Of a stretch of DNA of 33,826 bases, positions 4,386 through 31,978 are shown in pieces. Position 1 is the first letter of the stretch; each line of letters opens with the position of its first letter. The DNA is from a virus (Duplodnaviria > Heunggongvirae > Uroviricota > Caudoviricetes), in IMG/VR virus record IMGVR_UViG_2690316318_000017, positions 1 to 33,826 of that record, one strand, 5' to 3'. The notes under the pieces are model-generated. The model had not been told where the DNA came from, did not search any database, and saw only the letters and a list, made by a program, of their open reading frames with translations. The translations under genes and the position numbers were made by a program.

Positions 4386-5718
4386 TAATTACCACCCCGG
4401 CGGTTATGTTGTTCGGGTCACGTAACTGCGGGTTCAGGCGTTGCAGTTCTGCCGCACGACTGTAATCGCCGTACCACTGCCACGCCAGCAACAGCAGACA
4501 GCTGTCCGCCTGCACCTGTTTCTGCGTCAGCGGTGGGCGGCGTGACAGAACCAGCAGGCCGACATCCTGCACGGTTGCCGCCACGTTTTTCATGCTCTGA
4601 ATGATTTCCGGGTACATCAGCCCCAGCGGTGATGCGGTTTCGGTTATCCGTTCGCGTTCGCCTTCATAGCGTTCACGGAACAGCGTGATGGCAGCCTGTA
4701 AGCGGGTGCGCACATCCCCGACCAGTCGCCCGATATCCGCCGGTATAAGCTGTTCTGACTGCGCATCATCAACCAGTATCGCCATTGCAACACTGGCCAG
4801 TTCAGATGCGGCCTGTGTTGCGTAAACTGCTTTCACATCCTGCACATCGTCTGGCGAGGCATCCGCAGGAAGTGCCACCTCCGCTACTTTATCGCCACTG
4901 ACCAGGGTAACAGGCAACGCAACAAATTCATCCATATCAGTGATGACCTTATTCCAGCAGTTCATCACTGTCGCAGAACTGGCGACGGTCGTCTCTCCTG
5001 CCAACCCGGTCCGGGTGGCAGAATCAACACGTTGCAGAACCTGCACCGGTTGCCCGACATCTGATGTGTGGATTTCCAGCACCTCTGCCAGTTCATTGAT
5101 AAATTTTCCGGGTTCGCCTGCCAGTGACACGATATTATCGACAGTGGAGACAAAATCACTTTTGAACGACAGCAGGGTATTCACCAGTGTGGCACGCACT
5201 GTCTGGGCTTTTTTAATCATGCTGTTAACGGTATTTAAAGGTGCAGTAACGGCATCAAAAAAATCACTTAACCGCGCCTGTAAAGTGTCCAGTTCATCAA
5301 ACAACTGTTGCGCGAACAGCTCCGGTAACGGGGTGCTGAACAACGCGCTACCGGTGCGGTTTTCCAGAAAACTCATGTCAATGGTGCAGCTGTCCGGGCT
5401 TTCTGCGTCATGGCGGATGTTGTAGCCGGTCACAATCACCGACGGCACAGAGCCATAAACCGGATGAATCAGTTCACCATCGCCGCCTTCATCCAGGGCG
5501 GCGGTCAGTTTCCCGAGTTTATATTCATAGTCATCGCCCCACAGGAACGCCGTCATGCGGAACGGTCGCGCCTTGCGTCCGAGGTCGTGCAAATCCGCCC
5601 CGTCAACAAACGGGTATTCATAGACCGCATGGTCGCGGCTGATTTGTTCGTCAGTATTCAGCACCTCAAACTGCACGCCACGAAAGGAAGCGTTTTGCAG
5701 GTTTTCAGCCCAGCCCAT
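4369..5718 (-). CDS. DNA circulation protein N-like (Mu gp43-like) with C-terminal LysM-like domain
   Basis: 449 aa ORF directly after the tape measure gene (start overlaps its stop); C-terminus (WYGDYSRAAELQRLNPQL...ITAGVVINA) has a LysM / P2 gpX-like pattern. Confidence 0.5.
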   Translation of the reverse strand: MGWAENLQNASFRGVQFEVLNTDEQISRDHAVYEYPFVDGADLHDLGRKARPFRMTAFLWGDDYEYKLGKLTAALDEGGDGELIHPVYGSVPSVIVTGYNIRHDAESPDSCTIDMSFLENRTGSALFSTPLPELFAQQLFDELDTLQARLSDFFDAVTAPLNTVNSMIKKAQTVRATLVNTLLSFKSDFVSTVDNIVSLAGEPGKFINELAEVLEIHTSDVGQPVQVLQRVDSATRTGLAGETTVASSATVMNCWNKVITDMDEFVALPVTLVSGDKVAEVALPADASPDDVQDVKAVYATQAASELASVAMAILVDDAQSEQLIPADIGRLVGDVRTRLQAAITLFRERYEGERERITETASPLGLMYPEIIQSMKNVAATVQDVGLLVLSRRPPLTQKQVQADSCLLLLAWQWYGDYSRAAELQRLNPQLRDPNNITAGVVINAYAK

Positions 5719-7958
5719 CAGTAAGTTCCTCCCGTACCTCTGTTACCGTCCTGAAGGTTGTATTTGTTCACTGCCTCCGCCACGACCTGACCATCGAGCA
5801 CCAGTTGTGTGGTGAAATTAATGGGGCTGGCAGGTGGTCCCCAGTGCGTGAGGTATTCCGGCTGGGTGATGCGTCCGGGTTGCCTGGATGCTGATTCAGG
5901 CGTTGTGTTTCCTGCGGCTTTGTTCACCTGCTCCGGTGATGGCAGAGCATCAGCTGCGGCTTTCAGCTCATTATCCCGTTTAAGCATTCCTTCACGGGTA
6001 AAGAACAAGGAGCCATCGTCTGCAAAAAACAAACCATGATTATCTGTAAAGTTCTTGATGGTATCGCCAACAACAGCCCCATAAAGTTCTTCTGCGGCCT
6101 CATAGCCTGCGTAAATGGTTGCAATTTTTCCGGCTGCGCCCATTATTTTTCCCAGACGTCCCTGATTGCCGGAAGCGACTTCACTGATATCTTTAACTTT
6201 GGATGCAGTATCCCCAGTATCATCGGGTTTATCTGCTCCTCCGGACACTGGATTACCGGTAATAAGTTTCAGCCCCGCAAACGTGACGGCCGCTGCTGTC
6301 ATCGCTTTAATGGCTGTGGTAGCTGTCACCACTGCTGTGGTCAACCCCGGAAATTTTTCACCCGCCCAGCTTATGGCATCGGCCACAGTCCCGGATGCAT
6401 CAGCCAGTTTTTTCACACCATCCATTTGTGAAAATTCAAGCGTGTTTTTAGCCTGTTCGGTTTTAAAATCATTCGTGTCTGATATGAATTTAAAATCCAC
6501 ATCACCCGCGCGCTGACCTTCCGGCAGGGTGCGCTGCTGATTAATCGCGTCCTCAACCTTTTTCCGGTATTCCGGGTTGTTACGGTAAGCCAGCAACGCT
6601 TTTAACGCCTGTTGGTCTGCAACCAGTTTCCCGACACCAAAGCCTTCAAGGAGTTTTGCCATCGAATCATAAACAGCCGTCTGCTCGCCTTTATCCCGGG
6701 CTGAGGCCAGTTTCTTTTGCAACTCCTGAAAGCGTTTATCGCTGGCAACGATTTTGTCTATCAGGCTGGACAGCGCATCTATCGGATCAAGTCCATGTTC
6801 GCGCGCCTGAACCAGCGTACCGGAAAAATCAATTCCTTTACCGTTGTAATCAATGCTCTTTGCCGCTGTTTCAATATCGTGGCTGGTCAGTTTAGCCAGC
6901 AGGTTAAACACGTTATTTCCGGCCTCATCACTGCTTCCCGCCGTGATGGCGGCAGCTTCATTCAGTGCCAGAATCTTGACGAAATCATCCTTGCCTCTCA
7001 TCCCCGCAGCTGACGCTGACCCCAGTTGCGAAGATAACCAGCGGGCCATGTCGCTCAGTTCAAAGCTGCCTTCTTTGCCCGCTGCAATTGCCATATTCAG
7101 GACGGTGGAAATATCTTCATCCCTGAATCCAAAAGTCTTTTTGCCCTTAAGCATCACATTAGCCAGGTCTGTCGCTGATGCACCGGAAGCCGTGGCGTAT
7201 TTCATCAGTTCAGGCAGCCACTTACTGGCTGTTTCAAATGAAATACCGCCATCTTTCAGCAGGGCATCCAGCGTTTCGGCCGCATCCTCTTTCGTGCCGC
7301 CACCATAGGTCACTGCGTTACGGATGCTGCTTTTCATCTGCTCAAGACCAGCCCTGCGTCCCTCCAGACCGCCACCACTGAAGGCGGTATTGGCCATCAT
7401 TGCCAGCTGGCGTTCGTAGCTCATCTGCTTTTTGACCGGCTGTGCCATAATGGCCGCACCTGCTGCGATACCGCCGCCTATTGTCACGGCATTCCCGCCA
7501 AATGCAGCCGCACGGGCAAAACGCCCCCGTTCAGGGATAACAGGCGTTTTCGCCATTTTCATCTGAGCCTGAGTAACGCCATCCAGTTCACGCTTGAGTG
7601 CCCGGGCTTTTTCCCGGGTGGCCTGCATGGCGCGTTCCTGCTCCTGCGCAGATTCAAAACCGGCGCGGGCCAGACGGTTATAACTGGCAACCGTCAGATA
7701 AATTTCACGCCGGATCTCGCGTTCTGCACGAATACCGAGCGTTTCCCGGGCACGGGCGGCACGCTGTATCTCTTTTGCGGCCTTTTTCGTGCTGTTAATG
7801 CTTTCCTGCTCGGTACGCTTCTGCTCTGCGCCTGCTTTCCGGGTTGCCTTTGTTACACCTTCGGTGGCTTTGATAACCTGTTTTTGTCCCTTTTCCAGGA
7901 CCTGCGAGGCTTCGTCCTTCGCAGTCAGGGTCATGCCAACTTTGAAATTACCGGCCAT
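5718..7958 (-). CDS. Tail tape measure protein
   Basis: 746 aa, Ala/Gly/Lys-rich and low complexity, located between the chaperone and the baseplate genes. Confidence 0.8.
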   Translation of the reverse strand: MAGNFKVGMTLTAKDEASQVLEKGQKQVIKATEGVTKATRKAGAEQKRTEQESINSTKKAAKEIQRAARARETLGIRAEREIRREIYLTVASYNRLARAGFESAQEQERAMQATREKARALKRELDGVTQAQMKMAKTPVIPERGRFARAAAFGGNAVTIGGGIAAGAAIMAQPVKKQMSYERQLAMMANTAFSGGGLEGRRAGLEQMKSSIRNAVTYGGGTKEDAAETLDALLKDGGISFETASKWLPELMKYATASGASATDLANVMLKGKKTFGFRDEDISTVLNMAIAAGKEGSFELSDMARWLSSQLGSASAAGMRGKDDFVKILALNEAAAITAGSSDEAGNNVFNLLAKLTSHDIETAAKSIDYNGKGIDFSGTLVQAREHGLDPIDALSSLIDKIVASDKRFQELQKKLASARDKGEQTAVYDSMAKLLEGFGVGKLVADQQALKALLAYRNNPEYRKKVEDAINQQRTLPEGQRAGDVDFKFISDTNDFKTEQAKNTLEFSQMDGVKKLADASGTVADAISWAGEKFPGLTTAVVTATTAIKAMTAAAVTFAGLKLITGNPVSGGADKPDDTGDTASKVKDISEVASGNQGRLGKIMGAAGKIATIYAGYEAAEELYGAVVGDTIKNFTDNHGLFFADDGSLFFTREGMLKRDNELKAAADALPSPEQVNKAAGNTTPESASRQPGRITQPEYLTHWGPPASPINFTTQLVLDGQVVAEAVNKYNLQDGNRGTGGTY

Positions 7959-21973: not shown

Positions 21974-22252
21974 TCAGAAGCGGGAAAGGGAATCAGGCGT
22001 AATAAGAGGTTTATTACAAAGCGGAGCAGAGGCGTTCGCCTTTTCCATCGCTGCGCGCATCTCGTTTTCGCTGGCGATGATGTCAGCAATGGCACACTGC
22101 AACGCTTCTTCCTGAACAACCATATCCGGTTGTTCAGCCATTCGGTTTAGCTGGCTGGCCAGATTTTTCATATAAGCGAAGCGGCGTCCGGCAGCATCCC
22201 GGGCCTGCTCTGAGTAGGCCGTATACTCGCCAAGTGCCGTATAGTTGGTCAT
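21974..22252 (-). CDS. Hypothetical protein
   Basis: 92 aa ORF with AGGAG Shine-Dalgarno, located between the Mor/C-like gene terminator and the lysis-cassette motif. Confidence 0.35.
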   Translation of the reverse strand: MTNYTALGEYTAYSEQARDAAGRRFAYMKNLASQLNRMAEQPDMVVQEEALQCAIADIIASENEMRAAMEKANASAPLCNKPLITPDSLSRF

Positions 22253-22276
22253 AAGTGTCTCCTTTTTTGAGGCCCA

Positions 22277-22744
22277 TTAATCAAAAAGCCCCACCAGGGT
22301 GGGGCTTTTCAGCGAAGTCTGTTTTTGTCGTCGGTGTATCAGCTGCCATGCATACCGGTCTGAAATGCCGTAACGGGGACAGAGCAGTGCCAGCGCCTGC
22401 CGGTGTGAGCATCCGTCTTTTACATGCTGCTGTAAATCAGCCATAAAACGGGTGTTACGCAGGGCACGTAACGCATGATCGCAACGGGGAATGTAAAACG
22501 GAGCACCGCCAAGAAAGCGGATCAGTTTGTTGATTTCGTCTTCGGTCAGCACATCATGTAACAGGGCATGGACACCGCCGGTTCGTTCGGCGTGTGCGCC
22601 GGTTTTACCGCTTAACGTCACGCCACCAAAAGAACGGATTAACCGGGTCAGAGCGGGGAAGCCAATCACGCTAATCAGTTGCTGCACGGAATCAGGCAAC
22701 AGTGCCTGCGCATCGCGAAGATCTGTTTCACTGAAGGTCTGCAT
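22277..22744 (-). CDS. Mor/C-family transcriptional activator of middle/late genes
   Basis: 155 aa; C-terminal pattern LGGAPFYIPRCDHALRALRNTRFMADL...RYGISDRYAWQLIHRRQ matches the Mor/C signature (G..YIP plus HTH). Confidence 0.7.
   Translation of the reverse strand: MQTFSETDLRDAQALLPDSVQQLISVIGFPALTRLIRSFGGVTLSGKTGAHAERTGGVHALLHDVLTEDEINKLIRFLGGAPFYIPRCDHALRALRNTRFMADLQQHVKDGCSHRQALALLCPRYGISDRYAWQLIHRRQKQTSLKSPTLVGLFD
22280..22312 (-). terminator. Rho-independent terminator after the Mor/C-like gene
   Basis: Minus-strand hairpin AAAAGCCCCACC-CUGG-UGGGGCUUUUU followed by a U-run; overlaps the last codons of the upstream gene. Confidence 0.6.
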
Positions 22745-22800
22745 GATGGCGTCTCCGGTAGTAACTTACTGTTATTATAGCCATACATGATCGGCTGTAC
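22745..22800 (-). promoter_or_regulatory. Putative promoter of the Mor/C-like gene (perfect -10, weak -35)
   Basis: Minus-strand TATAAT at about 22774-22779 (preceded by TGGC), about 30 nt upstream of the ATG; no good -35, consistent with an activator-dependent promoter. Confidence 0.4.
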
Positions 22801-22804
22801 AGGG

Positions 22805-22832
22805 CATAAAAAAGCCCCTGCAAGGCAGGGGC
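22805..22832 (-). terminator. Rho-independent terminator ending the early operon
   Basis: Minus-strand GCCCCUGCCUUGCAGGGGC (8-bp stem, 4-nt loop) followed directly by UUUUUU, just after the GemA-like stop. Confidence 0.65.
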
Positions 22833-22839
22833 TGATTCT

Positions 22840-23379
22840 TTATTGTTTACGTGCTGCTCTGGCTCGTTTTCTGGCGTCTTTTGTCAGCGCCACCATCACC
22901 CCGAACAGTTGATCATCTGTCAGCCATTCGATCACATGTTGCTTATACATGTGAGATGCCAGTCCTTCCGCATACGTCCAGGAACGACCGGCATCAGCCA
23001 GCAACGCTTCAATTTTGGATAATACTGATTTTCTGCTCATTGCAACACGGGGGCGGCGACCTTTACCGGCGGGTGCCTTGCGCGGAAATCCCTGTTCGTG
23101 CATGTATTCCCGGATGATGCGCAGTTCATCGAGATTGCAGCGTGTGGTGCTGGTTTTACCGGTCAGACGGGCCAGCGTCTGGCGATAAAGGGCATCATCC
23201 CACCCCAGATACGCCTGACCGGCTTTAATGGCTCCGATCATCTTTTTCAGCATGTTTGTTATCCTCAAAACGCACGGTAAAACGTGAAACGCCAATCCCT
23301 GACAGAAACGCGGCGGCACGGTCAAGAGACAGCCACGTCTTGTAATCGCCACGGCGTTCCTGTAGAAAATAGGACACAC
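22840..23379 (-). CDS. GemA-like early regulatory protein (Mu gp16-like)
   Basis: Pattern IKAGQAYLGWDDALYRQTLARLTGKTSTT...ELR.I.EYMHEQGF resembles the GemA family; true start probably the internal MLKKMIG ATG near 23253. Confidence 0.4.
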   Translation of the reverse strand: MCPIFYRNAVAITRRGCLLTVPPRFCQGLAFHVLPCVLRITNMLKKMIGAIKAGQAYLGWDDALYRQTLARLTGKTSTTRCNLDELRIIREYMHEQGFPRKAPAGKGRRPRVAMSRKSVLSKIEALLADAGRSWTYAEGLASHMYKQHVIEWLTDDQLFGVMVALTKDARKRARAARKQ

Positions 23380-23539
23380 CAGCGCGGCGATTCACAGCGA
23401 ATAGATGATACACACCACCGAACCGCTGCACGACGAACTCATCCACGCCACCGCTTTCAGCCTGCTGCCTGAAGGCAGCTATTCCGATTTGTTCAATCTT
23501 CATAATGACCAAAACACTACTTTTGGCAGACCAAAACAT
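23225..23539 (-). CDS. Hypothetical early protein
   Basis: 104 aa ORF (likely shorter, from MKIEQIG) upstream of the GemA-like gene. Confidence 0.25.
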   Translation of the reverse strand: MFWSAKSSVLVIMKIEQIGIAAFRQQAESGGVDEFVVQRFGGVYHLFAVNRRAGVSYFLQERRGDYKTWLSLDRAAAFLSGIGVSRFTVRFEDNKHAEKDDRSH

Positions 23540-23583
23540 ATGTTTTGGTCTGTGCTTGATTGTTATTTGCTCAATGTGGTGGG

Positions 23584-23841
23584 TTATTTATCACCATCAC
23601 TGAGCGTCACTTCATGACAGGATGGTGTGCCATCTTTCCCGGCAGAGCAGTATATAAACTTATCTCCGTTGGTCATGGTGGCGCTTCCATCATCACAATG
23701 CGTAATAGTTTTGATGAAACCTCTCTTTACCACGCAATGCCTACCCGTATCACCAGGAACATCAGGATCCTTGTCCGTTGTAAAGCAAAGCGCAATAACC
23801 ATAATAATCAGAGCGATAATAAAAAGGTCGGTCCATCTCAT
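23584..23841 (-). CDS. Small membrane-anchored Cys-containing protein
   Basis: 85 aa; N-terminal hydrophobic anchor (LFIIALIIMVIALCF) then a hydrophilic domain with four Cys. Confidence 0.35.
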   Translation of the reverse strand: MRWTDLFIIALIIMVIALCFTTDKDPDVPGDTGRHCVVKRGFIKTITHCDDGSATMTNGDKFIYCSAGKDGTPSCHEVTLSDGDK

Positions 23842-24077
23842 AAAACACCCCGCGCAGCCATAAAACCAAAGACATATGACACAATTGATGCAGTGATAAG
23901 GATTAATGACCTTTTAAACTGACTTTTTTCTTCGCCACAGTTCATCCAGTTAAGGCATCCAAGTAATACGCCGTATAAAATTTCCATCATCTTCAGCCTG
24001 TTACTCCGTGATTTTTCCAGCGGTTTTGCGCCGCGCTGGGCTTTTTGCAACAGCTGTGCAACATCACCCCGCAACAC
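23838..24077 (-). CDS. Small membrane protein
   Basis: 79 aa with C-terminal hydrophobic segment (SLILITASIVSYVFGFMAA). Confidence 0.3.
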   Translation of the reverse strand: MLRGDVAQLLQKAQRGAKPLEKSRSNRLKMMEILYGVLLGCLNWMNCGEEKSQFKRSLILITASIVSYVFGFMAARGVL

Positions 24078-24344
24078 CCCGTCAACCTCACTCGTCTGTT
24101 ACTAATCCTCAACCATCGCCAGACCCCAACACCGTTTCTGCGAGCTAACAGAATTTTTGCTTTACGGTTTTTCATCGTTTTGCTCTCCTGCGTTTCTTTG
24201 CTGCACGTCGTGCAGCTGCAATACCGGTATGGCGCCTTGGTGCCGGGATGATGTTGCCTGCCATCAGGACATGCGGCTTTGAAATTAGCGCAGAAGCCCA
24301 AAAACGAGTCGGGTATGGTAATAAACCGATAAATGCAACACGCA

Positions 24345-24863
24345 TTACGCACCTCCTATCCCCTGAAGCATGACCGCGCGGCAGGCTTCATCAACCATAG
24401 CTTCTACGTTTTCGAGAAGTACGTAGCTGTACTGCTGCCCACTAACCCATTCTTTTCTGCGAGGTAATGCGCGTGGGTCCGCTACAATGGCTCGCAAACG
24501 TTCCAGAGCAGCTGGTACTGCTGACACTGGAGGGGCAGCATAAAGCTCATGCCTTCCATCAGGCAGCGAGTGACCCACATACTCACCGACCCCGTCAATA
24601 CACATTTCCCCATCTTCAACAATGCATGATGCTACTGGCAAAGCCACCTCCCGTGCCTCCAGTTCTTCTGCCCACTTCCGAAGCACTTCAATCTCACCAT
24701 TACGAGTTATCAGGTCACGACACATTCTTTCGTTTTCATCCAACAGCGCCTGCACAACCTCCGGCGTAGCCGCAGCACGAAAAGCCTGTAGGCTCTGCCA
24801 CGTCGTATCCCCCTTCGCGGCCTCTGCCACCTCACGCAGTGCCTGATAATTAATCTCGCTCAC
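24345..24863 (-). CDS. Hypothetical early protein (possibly Ead/Ea22-like)
   Basis: 172 aa; N-terminus MSEINYQALREVAEAAKGDTTW resembles prophage Ead/Ea22-type N-termini. Confidence 0.3.
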   Translation of the reverse strand: MSEINYQALREVAEAAKGDTTWQSLQAFRAAATPEVVQALLDENERMCRDLITRNGEIEVLRKWAEELEAREVALPVASCIVEDGEMCIDGVGEYVGHSLPDGRHELYAAPPVSAVPAALERLRAIVADPRALPRRKEWVSGQQYSYVLLENVEAMVDEACRAVMLQGIGGA

Positions 24864-25179
24864 TGGCTGCCTCCTTTTTCCATGTTTTCAGACTTTCACC
24901 ACAGAACGGGCAAAATGAAACTCGAATTGGTGATTTAGAAAACTCACCGGAACGCAACATCACCAAATCAGGTCCACGGGTTAAACTCTCATTCCAGATT
25001 TTGTATAGCAGTAAGCCTTTTCTTACTGAGCATTCAGCATCACGCTCAAGAGACTTTGCCAATGCAGCACACGGCTCTATTCGATTGCCATTAATTCGAC
25101 AATTTGATCCACTCACTTCAACTCCTCCCGACGACGTTCCTGAAGTTCCAGCATTGCGGCCCGGAAATCCTGCCACCAT
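24850..25179 (-). CDS. Small protein with putative zinc ribbon (start uncertain)
   Basis: Cys pairs C-x9-C and CPFCGES near the C-terminus; overlaps the upstream ORF so the real start is probably internal. Confidence 0.25.
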   Translation of the reverse strand: MVAGFPGRNAGTSGTSSGGVEVSGSNCRINGNRIEPCAALAKSLERDAECSVRKGLLLYKIWNESLTRGPDLVMLRSGEFSKSPIRVSFCPFCGESLKTWKKEAASERD

Positions 25180-25295
25180 TCCTCATCGGCAACCGGGGTG
25201 TTCCGCTCCAGCACCTTGTCCGCATCGGCAATCAGTCTGGTCAGACTCTTATCGCTTATTCTGGTTTGCTGACTCACTGGTTTCCTCCTGTTCAT
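25113..25295 (-). CDS. Hypothetical small protein
   Basis: 60 aa charged ORF in the early gene string; overlaps the downstream ORF, so uncertain. Confidence 0.2.
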   Translation of the reverse strand: MNRRKPVSQQTRISDKSLTRLIADADKVLERNTPVADEEWWQDFRAAMLELQERRREELK

Positions 25296-25561
25296 TTTTC
25301 ATTCCGGTACACAAGAATTACGATATCTCCCCAGGTAATTACGCGTGCCGGGTCGCCCTGTTGCATATAGTCAATATCAAAAGCGTCATTAAACGCATTT
25401 AGTGCCTTCACGCGCTTGTCTTTGCAGCGACGTTTTTCACATTGTTTAAAGACCGAAGAAATCAACCACCTGAATGACATAAAAGTGATATAGCCATAAC
25501 CGATAAGCGCCAGACCTGTATTCATGGCTACATCTATCGTTATCGTTTTATCAATGACCAT
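25292..25561 (-). CDS. Hypothetical small membrane protein
   Basis: 89 aa with one hydrophobic segment (GLALIGYGYITFMSF); 4-nt overlap with neighbour. Confidence 0.3.
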   Translation of the reverse strand: MVIDKTITIDVAMNTGLALIGYGYITFMSFRWLISSVFKQCEKRRCKDKRVKALNAFNDAFDIDYMQQGDPARVITWGDIVILVYRNEK

Positions 25562-25781
25562 TGCCAGCCTCCTGTTTTGCCACTTTAAACGCCCGTAACA
25601 TCGGAACCGTTTTACCGGTGATGACGGTTCTCATTAAAAGACCGCCACCGCTCTCATGGTGCACTTCAGGGGCTACAAACAGCGCCGCATCCACAACCCG
25701 GCAATAGCGGCGGAACTCCCAGAACCAGCATGTAACAATGATTTTTGCGGTGACTCCGTAGTCATAAAATTCAATATTCAT
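25551..25781 (-). CDS. Hypothetical small protein
   Basis: 76 aa ORF with start/stop overlaps to both neighbours. Confidence 0.25.
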   Translation of the reverse strand: MNIEFYDYGVTAKIIVTCWFWEFRRYCRVVDAALFVAPEVHHESGGGLLMRTVITGKTVPMLRAFKVAKQEAGNGH

Positions 25782-26005
25782 TTGCAGTTAAACCTTCTTT
25801 TGTGACGTTCTACAGCGGCTTTCATGGCGTTGTGCACGGTTCTTTTAATAATCCGGCGTCCCGCACTGTCATAGAACCGCCACCGGGAAGCCCCCGGATA
25901 TTTAGGGAACTCAACCGCTGCGCTACCGTCATTCATCCTGTATTCGTGGCGTTCTCCGGGAGGCTGGTATATTGCTTCGGTAACACTGAGAAGTTTAAAA
26001 GCCAT
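25778..26005 (-). CDS. Hypothetical small basic protein
   Basis: 75 aa ORF, 4-nt overlap with the downstream gene. Confidence 0.25.
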   Translation of the reverse strand: MAFKLLSVTEAIYQPPGERHEYRMNDGSAAVEFPKYPGASRWRFYDSAGRRIIKRTVHNAMKAAVERHKRRFNCK

Positions 26006-26007
26006 CG

Positions 26008-26718
26008 TTACGCCCTCCCCAGTGCCAGCGGTCTGTTGCTCTGACCATTAACCCCCTGATGCAGCCTGGCGTTTTTCCCGGCGATAAAACCGGCTGTAGC
26101 AGCAAACTCTGCACCCCGGCACGCTTTAGCTGTGCGCATATCCCCGTCGCGCAGTCCTTTAGTGCTGTGCAGATTCTTTCTGTAAAGCTCAAGGCGGCTT
26201 TTTTCTTCCGGGGAGACGTCATACACCGCAATGACATCATGGGCACCAAAGACCCAGCCTTCGCAGAACTGGTCGCCACGGGCCACCCGCGTGGACGGGC
26301 CGCAACGTTTGCAGTGTTTATCCTGATATTTTTTACGTTCAGCCATCATCTGACGGGAAAGCACATCAAACGCGTATGCCGCAATTTCCGGGCGGCTGTC
26401 AGGACCATAAAAACGCACGTAACGTTTGAGTGAACCAGAAGCCCGGTATTCGCCGGAGATGTAACACTCGACACCGAAGGCTTTACAGACCAGGTCGCAC
26501 AGGATGTGCATATAACGCGGCGGCGTACTGGCATCACTCGGCGCCCCCGCGCTGGCAGCTTCCTGAATGTCGAACAATTCAGCGTCGTTTTCGCTGATGC
26601 CATGCTGGCGCATATAAGCCTGGGCTTTTGCAATAGCGTTAGCGGCTTCTTCCGGGCTTGATGTTCCTCTGGCAAGGCGTAACAGTTTTTTGATTTTGGC
26701 AATGTATTTATCTTTCAT
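26008..26718 (-). CDS. Hypothetical protein with DUF2786-like N-terminus and Cys cluster
   Basis: 236 aa; N-terminus MKDKYIAKIKKLLRLARGTSSPEEAANAIAKAQAYMRQHGISE is typical of DUF2786-type prophage proteins; mid-protein HCKRCG...CEGW Cys cluster. Confidence 0.4.
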   Translation of the reverse strand: MKDKYIAKIKKLLRLARGTSSPEEAANAIAKAQAYMRQHGISENDAELFDIQEAASAGAPSDASTPPRYMHILCDLVCKAFGVECYISGEYRASGSLKRYVRFYGPDSRPEIAAYAFDVLSRQMMAERKKYQDKHCKRCGPSTRVARGDQFCEGWVFGAHDVIAVYDVSPEEKSRLELYRKNLHSTKGLRDGDMRTAKACRGAEFAATAGFIAGKNARLHQGVNGQSNRPLALGRA

Positions 26719-26996
26719 GGTCGTCTGAACCTCAGCATCCTGAATTCTGAATTACGCAACTTCCGGCACGGCCTTCAGGAGCGTGGGGAGCTCGTTCTGG
26801 CTGCGGCGCTGAATGAACATCTGCTGTTGATTGAGAACTGGTCGCAAGACGATTAAAACAAACGATTGTCAGATTAATTTCGCGGGCGAATTTTTTTTGC
26901 TTAGCGATATTCATAAATAAACTTCCTCAGATTCAGGCGTAAGCCAGCCCCGGCGGGTTTACGCCTGTTTTAAATAACAATTAAAAACAAATTAAA

Positions 26997-27188
26997 TTAA
27001 TGCGGTGCTTTCAGTGTTTCGACTTTAACGAAATAAGGCTCGACATTAATTTCAACCACACAACCACATTTAAAATCTCTGGCAGGTGCAACAGTTTTTA
27101 CCACCCGACCACCACGCACTGCCCGATGTGCAATGTGCATGAAGCGAGTCCCTGGCGGATATAGCTGATTAAAGCGTTTCGCGTTCAT
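26997..27188 (-). CDS. Hypothetical small protein
   Basis: 63 aa ORF; start overlaps the upstream gene stop. Confidence 0.25.
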   Translation of the reverse strand: MNAKRFNQLYPPGTRFMHIAHRAVRGGRVVKTVAPARDFKCGCVVEINVEPYFVKVETLKAPH

Positions 27189-27492
27189 GAGGCGGCTTCC
27201 ATCCTTTCAGGTGAGCATTGGCACAGAACTCTGCCCGGTGTTCCGCCCAGATGCGGCGCAGGGTACTACACGGGCTTTGTGCTGCCTTACGCCACAGTTT
27301 TTCAGCTTCGGCATAATCGCCGCGTTGTTCTGCTCTGGACGCGCCCAGCGAATACGCTGCGCAACGGTTCCCGGCCCTGTACTCTTTGATATCCTGATGC
27401 ATGTTAAACCCCTGCAATATCAAGCGGGATTGCGCGGTATTCAGCAGAATCACCGACGCGCTCATACACGCGGATATAGCTTTTGCTGCCAA
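27169..27492 (-). CDS. Small helical protein, possibly ANR-family regulator-like
   Basis: Motif AEQRGDYAEAEKLWRKAA...RRIWAEHRAEFC resembles ANR-type small regulators; true start probably the internal MHQDIKEY ATG near 27402. Confidence 0.3.
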   Translation of the reverse strand: MAAKAISACMSASVILLNTAQSRLILQGFNMHQDIKEYRAGNRCAAYSLGASRAEQRGDYAEAEKLWRKAAQSPCSTLRRIWAEHRAEFCANAHLKGWKPPHERETL

Positions 27493-28048
27493 TTACCTGG
27501 ACGGCTTCACCAATCAGCGACATGGCGTTATTCCAGCGTTCGTCCTCAATCTCGAGGCGACGCAGGGCCAGAACGCGACCGGTGTTGATGTTGCCTTCCT
27601 TGTCCGTGCTGAATGCCTCACTGATGATGGCCTTAATTTCAGGACGTGCACCTTCCGTCCAGTCAGCCAGGCAATCATCAATCAGCGACTTCGCGGTCTG
27701 AATGCGTTCATCAAACGCGATACGGTCCTGCATGGCGCGCTGAATCTTGTAACGCCCGTCAAAGCTGTAAAGCGTGATATTCCCTTTTTTGCCGCCTTTC
27801 ACAGCGCCGTATTTCTCCGCCGACAGGTCAATAAATGCCTGGATATCACCAAACGCACGCAGTTTCAGTTCCCGCAGTGAGGCGGAGGCAGCAATCACCA
27901 TCTCCACAAGCTCACCGACCAGCTGCTCGCGGTCGCGGTCAATATCTTTGATAAGGCTTTCAGGTGTCATTACGCCACGGGCATCCACCCAGTAACCTTC
28001 AGGCGCTTGAGTTTTCGTGTATTGCTTAACTTTATTTTCAGTCGTCAT
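27404..28048 (-). CDS. Hypothetical early protein (possibly DUF3164-like)
   Basis: 214 aa charged ORF in the position where Mu carries semi-essential early genes; does not resemble Mu Gam as I recall it. Confidence 0.3.
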   Translation of the reverse strand: MTTENKVKQYTKTQAPEGYWVDARGVMTPESLIKDIDRDREQLVGELVEMVIAASASLRELKLRAFGDIQAFIDLSAEKYGAVKGGKKGNITLYSFDGRYKIQRAMQDRIAFDERIQTAKSLIDDCLADWTEGARPEIKAIISEAFSTDKEGNINTGRVLALRRLEIEDERWNNAMSLIGEAVQVIGSKSYIRVYERVGDSAEYRAIPLDIAGV

Positions 28049-28077
28049 AATTAAATTACCTCAGTGATATTTACAGA

Positions 28078-28314
28078 TTAATGTGTGTTATGCGCGCAGG
28101 GGTCCACGCCAACAGAAAATAAATCAACGCCGTTAAATTCTTTATTAAGCGTTTGATTCATTACCTCCCATAACCGTTGTCTTACTCCGACCTCTTTATC
28201 CGTAAATCCTTTTTTATCAATAGCCCCCATACTCCTGACACGAAGCGTGCCGTTTTCATCGGTATAGATGATTACCTCTAACTTAACCGCCATGTTTTCC
28301 ACCTTTGAAATCAA
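28078..28314 (-). CDS. Small protein, member of three-gene paralogous array
   Basis: Internal start MAVKLEVIIYTDENG shares the N-terminal pattern with the next two ORFs. Confidence 0.35.
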   Translation of the reverse strand: MISKVENMAVKLEVIIYTDENGTLRVRSMGAIDKKGFTDKEVGVRQRLWEVMNQTLNKEFNGVDLFSVGVDPCAHNTH

Positions 28315-28474
28315 ACGATTTAAAAATAATTTCGTTCATAAAACAGTGAGTTTTTATGATAATGTCGGAAACCTGCTCTCCCGTGACATCAGGCGGCAAC
28401 TGATACGTCGCGACAGCTTTCTCCGGTTTACCAGGCCTGTCCAGGCTGAAGGTTAACTCAAGCTCTAATGACAT
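28283..28474 (-). CDS. Small protein, member of three-gene paralogous array
   Basis: N-terminus MSLELELTFSLD; tandem with the two related ORFs. Confidence 0.35.
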   Translation of the reverse strand: MSLELELTFSLDRPGKPEKAVATYQLPPDVTGEQVSDIIIKTHCFMNEIIFKSFDFKGGKHGG

Positions 28475-28484
28475 TTTTCACCTC

Positions 28485-28736
28485 TCAATGCATTTGTGTC
28501 TCTTGAGGAATATACGGACATCCCTGTGCCAGTTGTTTCACGTAATCATGGTAGATTTGCAGATCAAGCCGTTCATTTCCGTGTTTCTCCTTCAGAATCG
28601 TACAAATAGCGCCAACAGTCCCCAGAGTTCTTGCCGCTTCTTCGAGTGTGGCATTGTCGCCATTTTCCACCCGAATAAGGTTATGGCACTGGTTATTACC
28701 CAGGTCGGTAAATACTATTGTTAATTTCACGCTCAC
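28485..28736 (-). CDS. Small protein, member of three-gene paralogous array
   Basis: N-terminus MSVKLTIVFTDLG; tandem with the two related ORFs. Confidence 0.35.
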   Translation of the reverse strand: MSVKLTIVFTDLGNNQCHNLIRVENGDNATLEEAARTLGTVGAICTILKEKHGNERLDLQIYHDYVKQLAQGCPYIPQETQMH

Positions 28737-28751
28737 TTTTAATTCCTCGTT

Positions 28752-28991
28752 TTATTGCCATACGACGGTGCAGCCGTCGATACAGGACGTTTTAACCACA
28801 CGACGCAGGCCGCTGAATGTCTGGATGATTTCCGTTATCGGCCATACAGGACCGCCCACGGGCGGGCAGGCATAAACCACAGGTAAACGGTGATGTTGCC
28901 CAGTTACGCGACCGCCGGTGGTGTGGATGGCTACACGGGCACGGGAACGGACGGCGTTAATGGTCTGCTTGTCCATCGTCTTGTTCTCCAT
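28752..28991 (-). CDS. Hypothetical small protein immediately downstream of B (kil-like position)
   Basis: 79 aa ORF whose start overlaps the B stop codon. Confidence 0.3.
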   Translation of the reverse strand: MENKTMDKQTINAVRSRARVAIHTTGGRVTGQHHRLPVVYACPPVGGPVWPITEIIQTFSGLRRVVKTSCIDGCTVVWQ

Positions 28992-29884
28992 CAGTGAATT
29001 AACATTTCTGAATATTTATCAATGACCTGCACACTGACCGGTGCATCGCTGATATCACAAATCCGGTACACACCGCGCGCCAGCTTGAACAGACGACGGG
29101 CATTGCCCAGCGAACGTGTGTAAAGTGCCTCACCAATTTCCGGGTCTGCCGCTTCCGGCATCATGTCTGTGGCAATCTTGTTAAAATCTTCCTGCGTCAG
29201 CGTATCGCCCAGGTTAAGCGCCAGCGCCACGCGGCTGTATAATTGAGCGAACTCACCACAACGGCCCTTAAGGTTAATCAGAAGGTGAGGCATACCCGCC
29301 AGGACAATCCCGATACCCGCTTTGTCATGCAGACGGCGCAATACCTCCAGTGCACGATAGGGAAGCAGTTCAGCCTCATCCACCATCAGCAGACGACCTG
29401 ACCCACGCAGTTCACGCACACAGGCATCAATCTTCTCGCGAATATCGCCGTGAACCTTTATACCCAGCTGACGGCACAGTTCATCGAGTAACTTTCTGGC
29501 CGTATAGCCAATATCGGCTTCAATGAGCACTACATCCCGGTTTCTGGCAGCATACTCACTCAGAATCATGCTTTTACCCAGACCCGCCGCGCCATACAGC
29601 ACGCAAATATCACACTCCAGATGGGCGTAGGTCAGCACCTCCAGCCCTTTGGCGGCCATGCCGGTGGTGACAAATCGCACTTTAATACGGCGGTTGTTTT
29701 CCTTTTCCCATTCACGGGTCACAAAGGCAGAAATGCGTTCTTCAATATCAGCCATATCGCCCTGATATTTACCCTGCAAATACTGGTTAATAACGGCGCT
29801 GCTACGACCAATAGCACGGGCAACGTGGGTCTGCGTAAAGCCGCGACGGGCCATTACGTCATTTAATTGCGTAATTAAACTCAT
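28991..29884 (-). CDS. B: Transposition ATPase, MuB-like
   Basis: 297 aa; N-terminal HTH-like region then Walker A (GAAGLGKS) and Walker B-like (LLMVDEAE) motifs; directly downstream of the transposase. Confidence 0.8.
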   Translation of the reverse strand: MSLITQLNDVMARRGFTQTHVARAIGRSSAVINQYLQGKYQGDMADIEERISAFVTREWEKENNRRIKVRFVTTGMAAKGLEVLTYAHLECDICVLYGAAGLGKSMILSEYAARNRDVVLIEADIGYTARKLLDELCRQLGIKVHGDIREKIDACVRELRGSGRLLMVDEAELLPYRALEVLRRLHDKAGIGIVLAGMPHLLINLKGRCGEFAQLYSRVALALNLGDTLTQEDFNKIATDMMPEAADPEIGEALYTRSLGNARRLFKLARGVYRICDISDAPVSVQVIDKYSEMLIH

Positions 29885-29902
29885 AATTAAATACCTTTTA
29901 AA

Positions 29903-31978
29903 TTAACGATTATTTGTGCCGTTTTTCTTTAAATTGCGCTCACGGTCAGACACGAATAAATAAAGTTCTTCTTTTTCCTTTTTCTCCTGGCGTTCCAGTC
30001 CATATCCCAGATTAAAGTCAGGCTTCTGCGTAATAGCCGGGGTAAGCTCGCGTTTAGCCTCTTCGATTTTCTGCGTGGCCCGTGCAATGCGGCCTCTGGC
30101 GCGTTTCTCCTGCTGCTGTTCGATAACAGCTTTCGGGAACGCATCAACCTTATTACCGTTCCAGATGGCATCGCAGATATAAGAGCCATCAGCCCGCCGG
30201 ACAATGACGCTGTTTGCATCATGAATATCGTAACTGACCCTGACTTCATTCCCGTGCTCTGCGGCCAGCTCATACGAGTAATAAATATTGTTGAATAACT
30301 GAATTTCCCCGCGAAATGTTTTGCGCGTCACTTCCGGCCTGAACATTTCATGCAGTTCTTCCTGCGACAGAAAATCAATTTCAACATTCTGCTCTTTTAT
30401 CAGTTTCCGGCGATACGCTGCCGGGCTGTAATATTCGCCATCCTCTTTGCGGGGAAGGCTGCTGTGTGGCCGGTTGTTATAGCGTCTGACCTCCAGCTCT
30501 ATGGCGGCCATCAGTTGCTCAAAGGTAGGGATTTCATCCCTCGCCTTAACCTGCCGTTTTGTCAGCTCTTTCCCTTTGTGGGTGGCCTTAATGGCTGACT
30601 GTGTGATGCGTTGCTGCATCATCACCGTTTCCTTGTCTGCATTTTTTGAGCAGTACGTCTGGAAACTCAGAGCCACATCTTTGGGTATTCCTTTGTTTGC
30701 TCGTTCTATTACCCCGCGCCCCTGCGGGTTACCAGGTATCCCCGTGTGATGCTCCACACCCAGCCGGGGCAGAATCCCGGTAATATCGGCATCAAGTACC
30801 TGGTTTTTTTCACCGCCCCCGTTATCGGAGTAATAAATCAGCGGTATTCCGTGCTGTGCCATGCCGTAACGTAATGCATCAGCAACGGCTATCACGTTTT
30901 CCGACAGGGACAGGGACCAGCCCACAACAAAGCGCTGCCCCGCATCCATAACCAGCGTCACTTCTGGCCGGAAAATATTGCCGGTCAGGGGGTTAAACGC
31001 GGTCATTTTCATACAATGACCATCCCCGACCCATACCGCATTAACCGGTAATGATGTCCACTCGCGCCGCACAAAGGGATTGAGCGAACGCCAGGCTGAA
31101 CCTGTGGAGCGGAAACGCTCCTTAACAATCACCGGGACGCTGCTTAACACCCGTCTTACTGCGTGAACTGAAGGCAGTGCCGCCAGCATTCCCGCATCGT
31201 TCGCGTGTTTTTCATGCCACCAGGCTGAAAACTCGCGATACGCATATTCAACGGTCGGTCGCTTCCATGAGCGATAGAACATAAAGAAATCGCTCAACCA
31301 CCAGACCTGCTCCCACGGTGTCCCCTTATGATGACCGGGAGCCAGTAACGCCAGTAACTGATTGGCATCACCGCGCGCCATCACCCAGCTGGAGTACCAG
31401 CTATCCAGGCTGCCGGTGCTGACACCGGTTCGCTTTCCCTGACGTGCATTTGCAGTATTAGCTGCTTCGATAATGCGGTCAGGTAACGCCCCCATGCGCA
31501 CACCATCAACGATGTGCTTTAACGCGGCCTTCCTGGTCATTCCGGCGTATTCACGCAGTTTATGCACTTCAGTAGCCAGCAATATCCGCGCATCAGCGAT
31601 GGCCTTTTGCTTGTCGGTCAGTGCCTGGACTTCGCGTAATGCCAGTTCAGGGCATTTGACCATCACTTCAAGTTCATCGCGAATGGTGACGTTCTTAACT
31701 GCCTTCTGCTCAACCACAACGGGCAGTTGCGTATCTTCCAGGACCTGATGGGTCAGGCGTTGACGTAAAACCTTCTGAACATCTTTAGGTAAACTGGATA
31801 TATGGTACTCATATATTTTCCCCTGAACTCCAGACTTCCTTCTTCTTGTCCAGTTCGCTCGTTTAGCTTTTTGAGTGATCCCCTGTACAGTTTTCGGTAG
31901 CCCTTGAAGCCCTGTTAGTTCATTCAACGTAAACCATTCAGGTTCGAACTTGACTTCATAGTCGTTGTTCTTATTCAT
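29903..31978 (-). CDS. A: DDE transposase, MuA-like
   Basis: 691 aa; N-terminal DNA-binding domain paralogous to the repressor N-terminus; central core with acidic residues (VWVGDGHCMKM... and IYYSDNGGGEKN) consistent with a DDE/RNase H-fold catalytic domain. Confidence 0.9.
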   Translation of the reverse strand: MNKNNDYEVKFEPEWFTLNELTGLQGLPKTVQGITQKAKRANWTRRRKSGVQGKIYEYHISSLPKDVQKVLRQRLTHQVLEDTQLPVVVEQKAVKNVTIRDELEVMVKCPELALREVQALTDKQKAIADARILLATEVHKLREYAGMTRKAALKHIVDGVRMGALPDRIIEAANTANARQGKRTGVSTGSLDSWYSSWVMARGDANQLLALLAPGHHKGTPWEQVWWLSDFFMFYRSWKRPTVEYAYREFSAWWHEKHANDAGMLAALPSVHAVRRVLSSVPVIVKERFRSTGSAWRSLNPFVRREWTSLPVNAVWVGDGHCMKMTAFNPLTGNIFRPEVTLVMDAGQRFVVGWSLSLSENVIAVADALRYGMAQHGIPLIYYSDNGGGEKNQVLDADITGILPRLGVEHHTGIPGNPQGRGVIERANKGIPKDVALSFQTYCSKNADKETVMMQQRITQSAIKATHKGKELTKRQVKARDEIPTFEQLMAAIELEVRRYNNRPHSSLPRKEDGEYYSPAAYRRKLIKEQNVEIDFLSQEELHEMFRPEVTRKTFRGEIQLFNNIYYSYELAAEHGNEVRVSYDIHDANSVIVRRADGSYICDAIWNGNKVDAFPKAVIEQQQEKRARGRIARATQKIEEAKRELTPAITQKPDFNLGYGLERQEKKEKEELYLFVSDRERNLKKNGTNNR

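Follow-up and report, generated by a model that had tools for sequence, protein, structure and literature searches.

The 33,826-nt virus sequence IMGVR_UViG_2690316318_000017 (hereafter the window, meaning the whole stretch that was analysed) is a Mu-like prophage on the minus strand, and this analysis concerns the block of small genes at positions 23540-28991, between gene B and the gene for a GemA-like protein. The block belongs to a Mu-like transposable prophage of the Escherichia coli/Escherichia albertii type. With a probability of roughly 0.65, we read it as an ordinary semi-essential early region of the Mu type, consisting of a conserved backbone and a variable cargo, with a protein of the DUF3164 family (g5) as the proposed substitute for Gam. 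The block itself is ordinary, as closely similar sequence is already present in hundreds of public E. coli genomes; new here are the recognition of gene g6 as Rnr in a phage context, the split into backbone and cargo, and a concrete Gam-substitute hypothesis for DUF3164.

Gene content of the block

Genes A (29903-31978), B (28991-29884), gemA-like (about 22840-23253) and mor (22277-22744) all lie on the minus strand, and 18 minus-strand open reading frames (ORFs; g1 to g18), co-directional with A and B, fill the interval from B to the ORF preceding GemA. After the starts had been refined by close-relative annotation and PHROG alignments, the ORFs ranged from 50 to 236 amino acids (aa). Among the 17 internal junctions, 10 are overlaps of 1-20 nt (several of the ATGA or GTGA form), three are gaps of 1-2 nt and three are gaps of 10-29 nt; the single 278-nt gap at 26719-26996 is the sole sizeable non-coding stretch in the block. 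Shine-Dalgarno sequences were found upstream of most of the ORF starts. An earlier note on this DNA had described a dense minus-strand string of small ORFs between B and GemA and had taken it for a Mu-type early region; both points are borne out. The features are listed below in the order of the minus strand, with family matches (E values unless stated), occurrence among 16 close relatives and, for some genes, synonymous to non-synonymous changes (syn:non), counted for the window genes against four E. coli relatives with 89-99% nt identity.

28752-28976, minus strand: g1, Kil family, 74 aa, first gene after B; phrog_2679, 8e-35; 16/16 relatives
28485-28736, minus strand: g2, 83 aa, variable cargo; phrog_35084, 1e-60; 5/16 relatives
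28283-28474, minus strand: g3, 63 aa, variable cargo; phrog_38867, 5e-48; 6/16 relatives; syn:non 7:3, 7:1, 6:1
28078-28293, minus strand: g4, 71 aa; phrog_7438, 8e-22; 16/16 relatives, in two allelic types (~95% or ~45-52% identity)
27404-28048, minus strand: g5, DUF3164, 214 aa; Pfam PF11363, 5e-81; 16/16 relatives
27169-27402, minus strand: g6, Rnr, ANR family, 77 aa; NF033650, 56.9 bits (cutoff 32); 16/16 relatives
26997-27188, minus strand: g7, 63 aa, basic, pI 10.1, overlapping g6 by 20 nt; phrog_5591, 1e-40; 16/16 relatives
26719-26996, no strand: gap with a boundary element of about 60 nt (hairpin, A/T tract, ribosome-binding site) and a doubtful 60-aa ORF
26008-26718, minus strand: g8, DUF2786 plus DUF7168, 236 aa, pI 9.4; Pfam, 5e-13 and 4e-29; 16/16 relatives
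25778-26005, minus strand: g9, 75 aa, basic; phrog_9400, 3e-40; 16/16 relatives; syn:non 5:2, 10:4, 4:0
25551-25781, minus strand: g10, 76 aa; phrog_1001, 5e-35; 16/16 relatives, 78-98% identity
25292-25561, minus strand: g11, DUF4752, 89 aa, hydrophobic N-terminal part, variable cargo; PF15944, 8e-39; 9/16 relatives
25113-25295, minus strand: g12, 60 aa; phrog_14672, 2e-32; 15/16 relatives
24850-25116, minus strand: g13, about 88 aa, C-terminal CPFC motif, variable cargo; phrog_4030, 7e-37; 5/16 relatives
24345-24863, minus strand: g14, Ead/Ea22-like, 172 aa, pI 4.6, lambdoid-type module; PF13935, 1e-13, residues 2-82; 5/16 relatives
24172-24345, minus strand: g15, 57 aa, very basic, pI 12, lambdoid-type module; phrog_13831, 9e-36
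23993-24175, minus strand: g16, 60 aa, very basic, pI 11.9, lambdoid-type module, counterpart of PhiV10p50, ATGA overlap with g15; phrog_1380, 6e-29; 15/16 relatives
23838-23990, minus strand: g17, hydrophobic ORF of 50 aa, weakly supported, by tight packing alone (2-nt gap, then 4-nt overlap)
23584-23841, minus strand: g18, 85 aa, N-terminal membrane anchor, Cys-rich tail, variable cargo; phrog_8391, 1e-52; 5/16 relatives

PHROG families were matched by 17 of the 18 ORFs, with E values from about 1e-20 down to 1e-93, and g17 had no such match. Synonymous changes outnumber non-synonymous ones in most block genes, for example in DUF3164 (13:3, 15:5 and 19:11) and in the DUF2786 gene g8 (20:5, 17:5, 21:3 and 21:6); near-neutral counts were found in g7 (8:9), g15 (6:8, with a stop in one relative) and g16 (7:8). 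A 19th ORF, of 60 aa, lies in the gap at 26732-26914, but it is probably not a gene, because its summed syn:non of 11:17 looks neutral and profile scans gave no family match. The family assignments, some of which the earlier note had offered as weak hints, are firm: for DUF3164, DUF4752 and Ead/Ea22 the Pfam values are those listed, g8 carries DUF2786 at 5e-13 and DUF7168 at 4e-29, and the ANR-like hint became a match well above the family cutoff. Thus, although most genes do lack a tested function, the judgement that none could be assigned was too pessimistic, in view of Kil, Rnr and the firm Pfam matches.

The first gene, g1, is by sequence a Kil-family gene in the kil position of Mu. It matches phrog_2679, annotated as 'Kil protein for bacterial septation inhibition' (8e-35), and cross-matches phrog_2743 at 0.006, the family in which Mu Kil itself sits (1e-42, with a cross-match of Mu Kil to phrog_2679 at 9e-5); both proteins are of 74 aa and both genes directly follow B. 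By family annotation, g1 would act as an inhibitor of host cell division. In Mu, the semi-essential early region (Mup05-Mup16, from kil to gemA) occupies the corresponding place and shares the strand of A and B; it too opens with a Kil-family gene of 74 aa and is a string of small, tightly packed ORFs, mostly of unknown function. However, no protein is shared beyond weak similarity in Kil, GemA and Mor; Mu lacks the ANR/Rnr, DUF2786/DUF7168 and lambdoid-type Ead/Ea22 genes, all of which the block contains, and the window lacks gam and has DUF3164 in its slot.

Terminator-like sites of more than 7 pairs were not found inside the block, a 9-pair GC-rich site of this kind lies after gemA, and an Rfam scan of 22000-30000 revealed nothing credible. 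Transcription from the early promoter would run on from ner, A and B into the block, and translation may be coupled across most of the junctions.

DUF3164 in the position of gam

The earlier note had recognised no homologue of Mu Gam, and this held throughout the window: blastp against the Mu early proteins and the PHROG and Pfam scans gave none, and the best tblastn match of Mu Gam had an E value of 0.19. DUF3164 stands between kil and gemA, the slot of gam in Mu. We found 3017 homologues of DUF3164, the closest in E. albertii (98% identity), and collected 80 loci on contigs of one genome per species, from Enterobacterales, Pasteurellaceae, Pseudomonas, Burkholderiales and others. In most of these loci A, B, GemA and Mor surround DUF3164, and Gam was present within 10 kb in none of the 80; conversely, no DUF3164 was found in 80 Gam loci on viral contigs, 48 of which contain the whole B-to-GemA interval, both samples being biased by their anchors. 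Among named phages, DUF3164 is present in 209 records, including BcepMu (gp05), B3, JBD25, KS10, Ab30, RC1 and Mannheimia phage 3927AP2, and Gam in 139, including Mu, D108, SfMu, D3112, DMS3, JBD30 and RcapMu. That certain roseophages bear DUF3164 and no Gam has been stated before, without comment (Tang et al. 2017).

Two pairs of Pseudomonas phages document the exchange of the two genes at the DNA level. In Ab30 and D3112, the flanks are 98.1% and 96.6% identical and the slot holds DUF3164 in the former and gam in the latter; in the B3-like phages JBD25 and H72, with flanks of 97.5% and 96.8% identity, it holds a small ORF plus DUF3164 in JBD25 versus gam in H72. To obtain a sample free of the anchor bias, 80 loci were anchored on the B protein of D3112. 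Of these, 66 contain both B and GemA, comprising 41 with DUF3164 only, 23 with Gam only, none with both and two with neither (Fisher p = 9e-16, a value that overstates independence because the loci are phylogenetically related). The DUF3164 and Gam types are interleaved along the ranking of the loci by B identity.

Two loci that at first appeared to carry both genes were artefacts, matching only residues 170-266 of the D3112 'gam' ORF, which are not Gam. This ORF (AY394005.1, 7567-8367; 3995-4795 in our locus L167) is annotated as 266 aa, matches Mu Gam only over residues ~4-156, and its residues 170-266 correspond to an independent small ORF located after DUF3164 in other phages; judging from these alignments, the D3112 record probably fuses two genes.

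Mu Gam (PF07352) is a Ku-like inhibitor of host nucleases that binds double-stranded DNA ends. DUF3164 occupies the same slot, replaces it one for one and does not co-occur with it in the samples, but differs in having no sequence or predicted-fold similarity and in being acidic (pI 5.2, versus a near-neutral 7.8 for Mu Gam). Specifically, hhalign gave a probability of 0.3-0.6% for the DUF3164 profile against that of Gam, and Pfam shows PF11363 alone. The AlphaFold (AF2) model of DUF3164 (predicted local distance difference test score, pLDDT, 82.9; predicted template modelling score, pTM, 0.57) consists of a beta hairpin, a 46-residue helix, a sheet, four helices and a beta hairpin, and a search of PDB and BFVD found no fold relative and no Ku-like fold. 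Since neither profiles nor predicted fold relate DUF3164 to Gam or Ku, we infer a non-homologous functional substitute, that is, non-orthologous displacement. From its position and its exchange with gam, the proposal that DUF3164 stands in for Gam in protecting linear phage DNA from host exonucleases, possibly by a different mechanism, has in our view an even chance, or slightly less, of being correct. On this proposal, an unrelated protein would keep RecBCD and other host exonucleases off linear phage DNA, be it incoming or excised; it might bind to the DNA ends or, like lambda Gam, inhibit the nuclease directly.

Several points weigh against this interpretation of DUF3164 and of the block. 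Mutual exclusion can arise not only from equivalence but also from alternative anti-defence cargos or from incompatibility, and the exchanges documented at the DNA level number two, although the interleaving along the B-identity ranking suggests more. Mass spectrometry of purified particle preparations of roseophages vB_ThpS-P1 and vB_PeaS-P1 revealed DUF3164 peptides as well as transposase B (PMC5488378), a finding that a Gam-like role does not predict. In addition, most cargo genes have no assigned function, the papers on Rnr treat it as a host virulence regulator and it is not known to have a phage phenotype, and the high conservation of DUF3164 depends on the anchor and is not relied on here. 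In the DUF3164-anchored loci, median identities are 63% for DUF3164, 39% for A and 48% for B (in Photorhabdus, 77% versus 24% and 33%), whereas in the B-anchored loci they are 52% for DUF3164 versus 66% for B. We have therefore withdrawn the idea that DUF3164 is the best-conserved early protein: as the order reverses with the anchor, the contrast is partly a matter of anchor selection, and part of it may reflect gene exchange between lineages. As to the particles, the protein in them could be carry-over from the lysate or a hint of packaging.

The company that DUF3164 keeps might instead point to an accessory factor of transposition or replication, acting for example with MuA/MuB or the transpososome, with the Gam phages using another route. 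DUF3164 always lies 1-4 kb downstream of B, is found also beside a DDE transposase and ATPases in transposable phages of Bacteroidetes, retains 56-77% identity from Enterobacterales to Burkholderiales, and was recovered with transposase B in the particle preparations. We nevertheless consider this unlikely, as a core transposition factor should not swap cleanly with gam where the A and B genes are 97-98% identical, and Mu transposes without DUF3164.

The slot could also be an anti-defence hotspot, in which gam and DUF3164 counter different immune systems and exclude each other only because there is room for one cassette. Exchange of whole-gene cassettes at conserved boundaries is indeed the rule in this region, and one of the two exchanges includes an extra small ORF, JBD25 gp08, on the DUF3164 side. 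However, two alternatives alone fill the slot in 64 of the 66 loci, while true hotspots, such as the anti-CRISPR locus of the same phages, hold many different genes (PMC4378225), and typical anti-defence cargo comes nowhere near the conservation and spread of DUF3164, making this explanation an improbable one.

The exchange of gam and DUF3164 thus provides a concrete hypothesis, that of a Gam substitute, for a family with thousands of members and no assigned function. If it is true, DUF3164 would add a new family to the short list of phage RecBCD-inhibiting or end-protection factors, which are useful as tools (Mu Gam marks double-strand breaks and is used in base editors) and are also relevant to defence systems that sense RecBCD inhibition.

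Small ORFs accompany DUF3164 in two of the phages. JBD25 gp08 travels with it, and in Mannheimia phage 3927AP2 the 63-aa gp06 (4546-4737 in our locus L168), directly upstream of DUF3164, belongs to phrog_803, 'host nuclease inhibitor'; a small partner protein may therefore accompany DUF3164 in some lineages. No ORF of the window matches phrog_803.

Rnr as an early gene of Mu-like phages

At the protein level g6 is, by its sequence, Rnr itself. All 77 of its residues (77/77) are identical to those of Rnr of enteropathogenic E. coli (EPEC) E2348/69 (WP_000553850), and over 73 nt a published rnr knockout primer differs at a single position from window 27355-27427, where DUF3164 ends and g6 begins. 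The rnr gene of E2348/69 is E2348C_2635 (FM180568.1, 2,721,409-2,721,642), which was deleted in a 2023 study of the ANR family (PMC10148876); its position falls within the segment of NC_011601.1 that matches this block (2,720,267-2,724,820). Like the known members of the family (Aar of enteroaggregative E. coli, and Rnr of Citrobacter rodentium and EPEC), g6 is small (<10 kDa) and scores above the NCBIfam cutoff, with no difference in sequence from the EPEC protein.

Rnr is reported to control a regulon of more than 500 genes, including the locus of enterocyte effacement (LEE) island, and the protein identical to g6 to bind H-NS and Ler in two-hybrid assays (PMC10148876). That account of Rnr does not mention a phage, and the 2014 paper on the ANR family places the C. 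rodentium copy in a 'predicted phage-encoded region' and says nothing further. What we add is the context. An ANR homologue follows DUF3164 in 25 of the 80 distant loci, those of Pasteurellaceae phages included, and likewise in Mannheimia phage 3927AP2, indicating that Mu-like phages conserve rnr as an early gene behind DUF3164.

According to a passage in PMC8501957 that cites van Ulsen 1996, the early promoter of Mu is repressed by H-NS, and in lysogens the early genes of Mu are expressed at low levels from Pe and Pe* (PMC3820752). From these findings, the role of Rnr on the phage side would be to counter silencing by H-NS. As a small ANR protein binding H-NS, Ler and AraC-type regulators, it would most plausibly relieve H-NS silencing of phage promoters, and leaky early expression of Rnr in a lysogen would rewire host virulence genes, to which its virulence effects may be due. 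The effects of Rnr on H-NS and the LEE may thus be a by-product of phage counter-silencing, and this suggests that Rnr expression may track the activity of the prophage early promoter.

A wider proposal would extend both findings, namely that DUF3164 is an unrecognised, structurally novel family with Gam function in many transposable phages, from Proteobacteria to Bacteroidetes, and that the ANR regulators (Aar and Rnr) originate as early proteins of Mu-like phages that counter H-NS. We put this forward tentatively, with the odds somewhat against it.

Backbone, cargo and minor features

The block or parts of it were found by megablast in 888 of 5426 complete E. coli genomes, the best matches having 93-96% identity, with no single genome covering more than 83% of it (<=83%). 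The comparison of gene content with related prophages that the earlier note had proposed separated conserved from variable genes: kil, g4, DUF3164, rnr, g7, DUF2786, g9 and g10 are present in all 16 close relatives, and the neighbouring g19 and GemA, outside the block, share this distribution; g12 and g16 occur in 15 each; and g2, g3, g11, g13, g14, g15 and g18 are variable, with g17 in none. The block had been called accessory, which is true of the variable cargo but not of the block as a whole, seven of its genes (kil, DUF3164, rnr, g7, DUF2786, g9 and g10) occurring in 16/16. All of these except g10 keep their order across genera, and the order A-B-(kil)-DUF3164-(ANR)-(g7)-(DUF2786)-(g9)-GemA-Mor recurs in Enterobacterales, Pasteurellaceae, Pseudomonas and Burkholderiales.

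The nearest sister prophages, in E2348/69 (the Mu-like prophage carrying rnr as E2348C_2635) and in STEC and other E. coli, share 93-98% nt identity with the window over 71-83% of the block. Their Rnr and g7 are identical to those of the window, DUF3164 is 99.5% and DUF2786 99% identical. The E2348/69 prophage differs in lacking g2 and g3 and in having a disrupted g4, no sister prophage has g17, and some have an extra phrog_7741 gene, with or without DUF7448, where the window has its 278-nt gap.

Functionally, the backbone would thus begin with kil, as the presumed cell-division inhibitor, followed by DUF3164 and Rnr with the roles proposed above, and would end with g7, the DUF2786/DUF7168 protein and g9, all of which are basic and may bind nucleic acid. 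The cargo layer would comprise g2, g3, g11 and g13 to g18, including the Ead/Ea22 module, as whole genes gained or lost at conserved boundary sequences. It is very improbable that the block is instead a neutral mosaic of leftover small ORFs, dispensable passengers beyond kil and Rnr: Mu forms plaques without its counterpart region, the 16 relatives differ in half of the genes with g17 unique to the window, and several small ORFs (g7, g15 and g16) have near-neutral syn:non, but the backbone keeps its order and reading frames across bacterial orders under clear purifying selection, and nearly all of the ORFs fall into PHROG families with members in many phages.

The DUF2786/DUF7168 protein g8 had been noted for a Cys cluster. 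In an alignment of 47 homologues, however, only C152, within the motif DQFCEGW, is nearly invariant and the cysteines of CKRC vary; no conserved set of Cys/His ligands was seen, and the zinc-binding reading was rejected. In Pseudomonas phages, a g8-type DUF2786 gene follows either DUF3164 or Gam, indicating that its presence is independent of which of the two is there. Profile and structure searches of the ORFs, also proposed in the earlier note, gave the firm families described above but no PDB fold relative for the models of DUF3164 or DUF2786; the g8 model (pLDDT 85.5, pTM 0.76) had no solved structural relative, and PDB sequence searches with the DUF3164, DUF2786, Rnr and Ead proteins gave nothing below E=0.1. 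We found no functional study in the literature on DUF3164, PF11363, DUF2786, DUF4752, DUF7168 or DUF7448.

Among the smaller backbone genes, g7 was found in different genera, in 33 of the 80 DUF3164 loci, and in each case immediately follows DUF3164/ANR, whose loci include g9 in 18 of the 80. In the four RefSeq relatives examined, g9 was left unannotated and appears as a 227-nt 'gap', its ORF being intact in all relatives. The search for defence genes, made with PADLOC profiles and no anti-defence library, matched none of the ORFs at E<=0.01, except for a spurious 15-bit match to g9. The similar-looking N-termini of g2, g3, g4 and Mu gp6/gp7 had suggested paralogues, but on testing these proved not to be paralogous. 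For g13, the GTG start at 25116 is preferred because the phrog_4030 alignment begins at residue 23 of the long ORF.

The relatives differ from one another by whole-gene insertions and deletions. At the 278-nt gap, an extra phrog_7741 gene is present in three of the four annotated relatives, two of which also have DUF7448. In STEC316, STEC313 and UMNF18, a boundary element of about 60 nt occurs twice, flanking the inserted genes, and the window keeps one copy, at 26928-26989, consisting of an A/T tract, a GGCGTAA...TTACGCC hairpin (-19.5 kcal/mol, z = -1.1), a ribosome-binding site and an ATG. The paired copies in relatives are at 6555-6616 and 7631-7692 of locus L001 and at about 5190-5260 and 5808-5890 of locus L005. 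In plus-strand orientation TTTT comes after the hairpin, which could thus act as a terminator for WP_000564495, a plus-strand ORF present here in E2348/69 and STEC316 and reduced in the window by the loss of its 5' part.

The segment 24008-24357 (the 3' end of g14, g15 and g16) shares 92-93% nt identity with phiV10 and O157 typing phages and 80-86% with Shiga toxin (Stx) and P1-like phages, and the phiV10 order Ead/Ea22, p49, p50 is that of g14, g15 and g16, showing that this part is a lambdoid-type module. The lambdoid ea/nin-type accessory regions (phiV10 p48-p50, Stx phages) have in common with the block the g14-g16 run, DUF4752 and other PHROG families; in lambdoid phages the module lies in the early-left operon, whereas in the window it lies inside the early operon of a transposable phage.

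For g17, no PHROG, Pfam or PADLOC match and no homologue in the 16 close relatives was found, and a search of 5.8 billion proteins for homologues of g18 yielded six unnamed clusters only. By their sequences, g17 and g18 are two small membrane-type ORFs at the distal end of the block and may be candidates for exclusion or envelope functions.

Beyond the block, the GemA-Mor interval contains a strong bidirectional terminator-like hairpin at 22813-22833 (9 pairs, seven of them G-C, with T-runs on both sides) and, directly after it, the best sigma-70-like promoter of the region (22774-22801, TGTACA-16-TATAAT, 10/12), suggesting that early transcription stops beyond gemA here and that mor is read from a promoter of its own, unlike in Mu. 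The intergenic positions 23526-23553, flanked by g18 and the ORF at 23225-23503, form a perfect 14+14 palindrome, with the halves ACAGACCAAAACAT and ATGTTTTGGTCTGC, which is 100% conserved in relatives, and a third half-site, GTGTTTTGGTC, lies 11 nt beyond it. As no T-run follows, the palindrome resembles a binding site for a protein more than it does a terminator.

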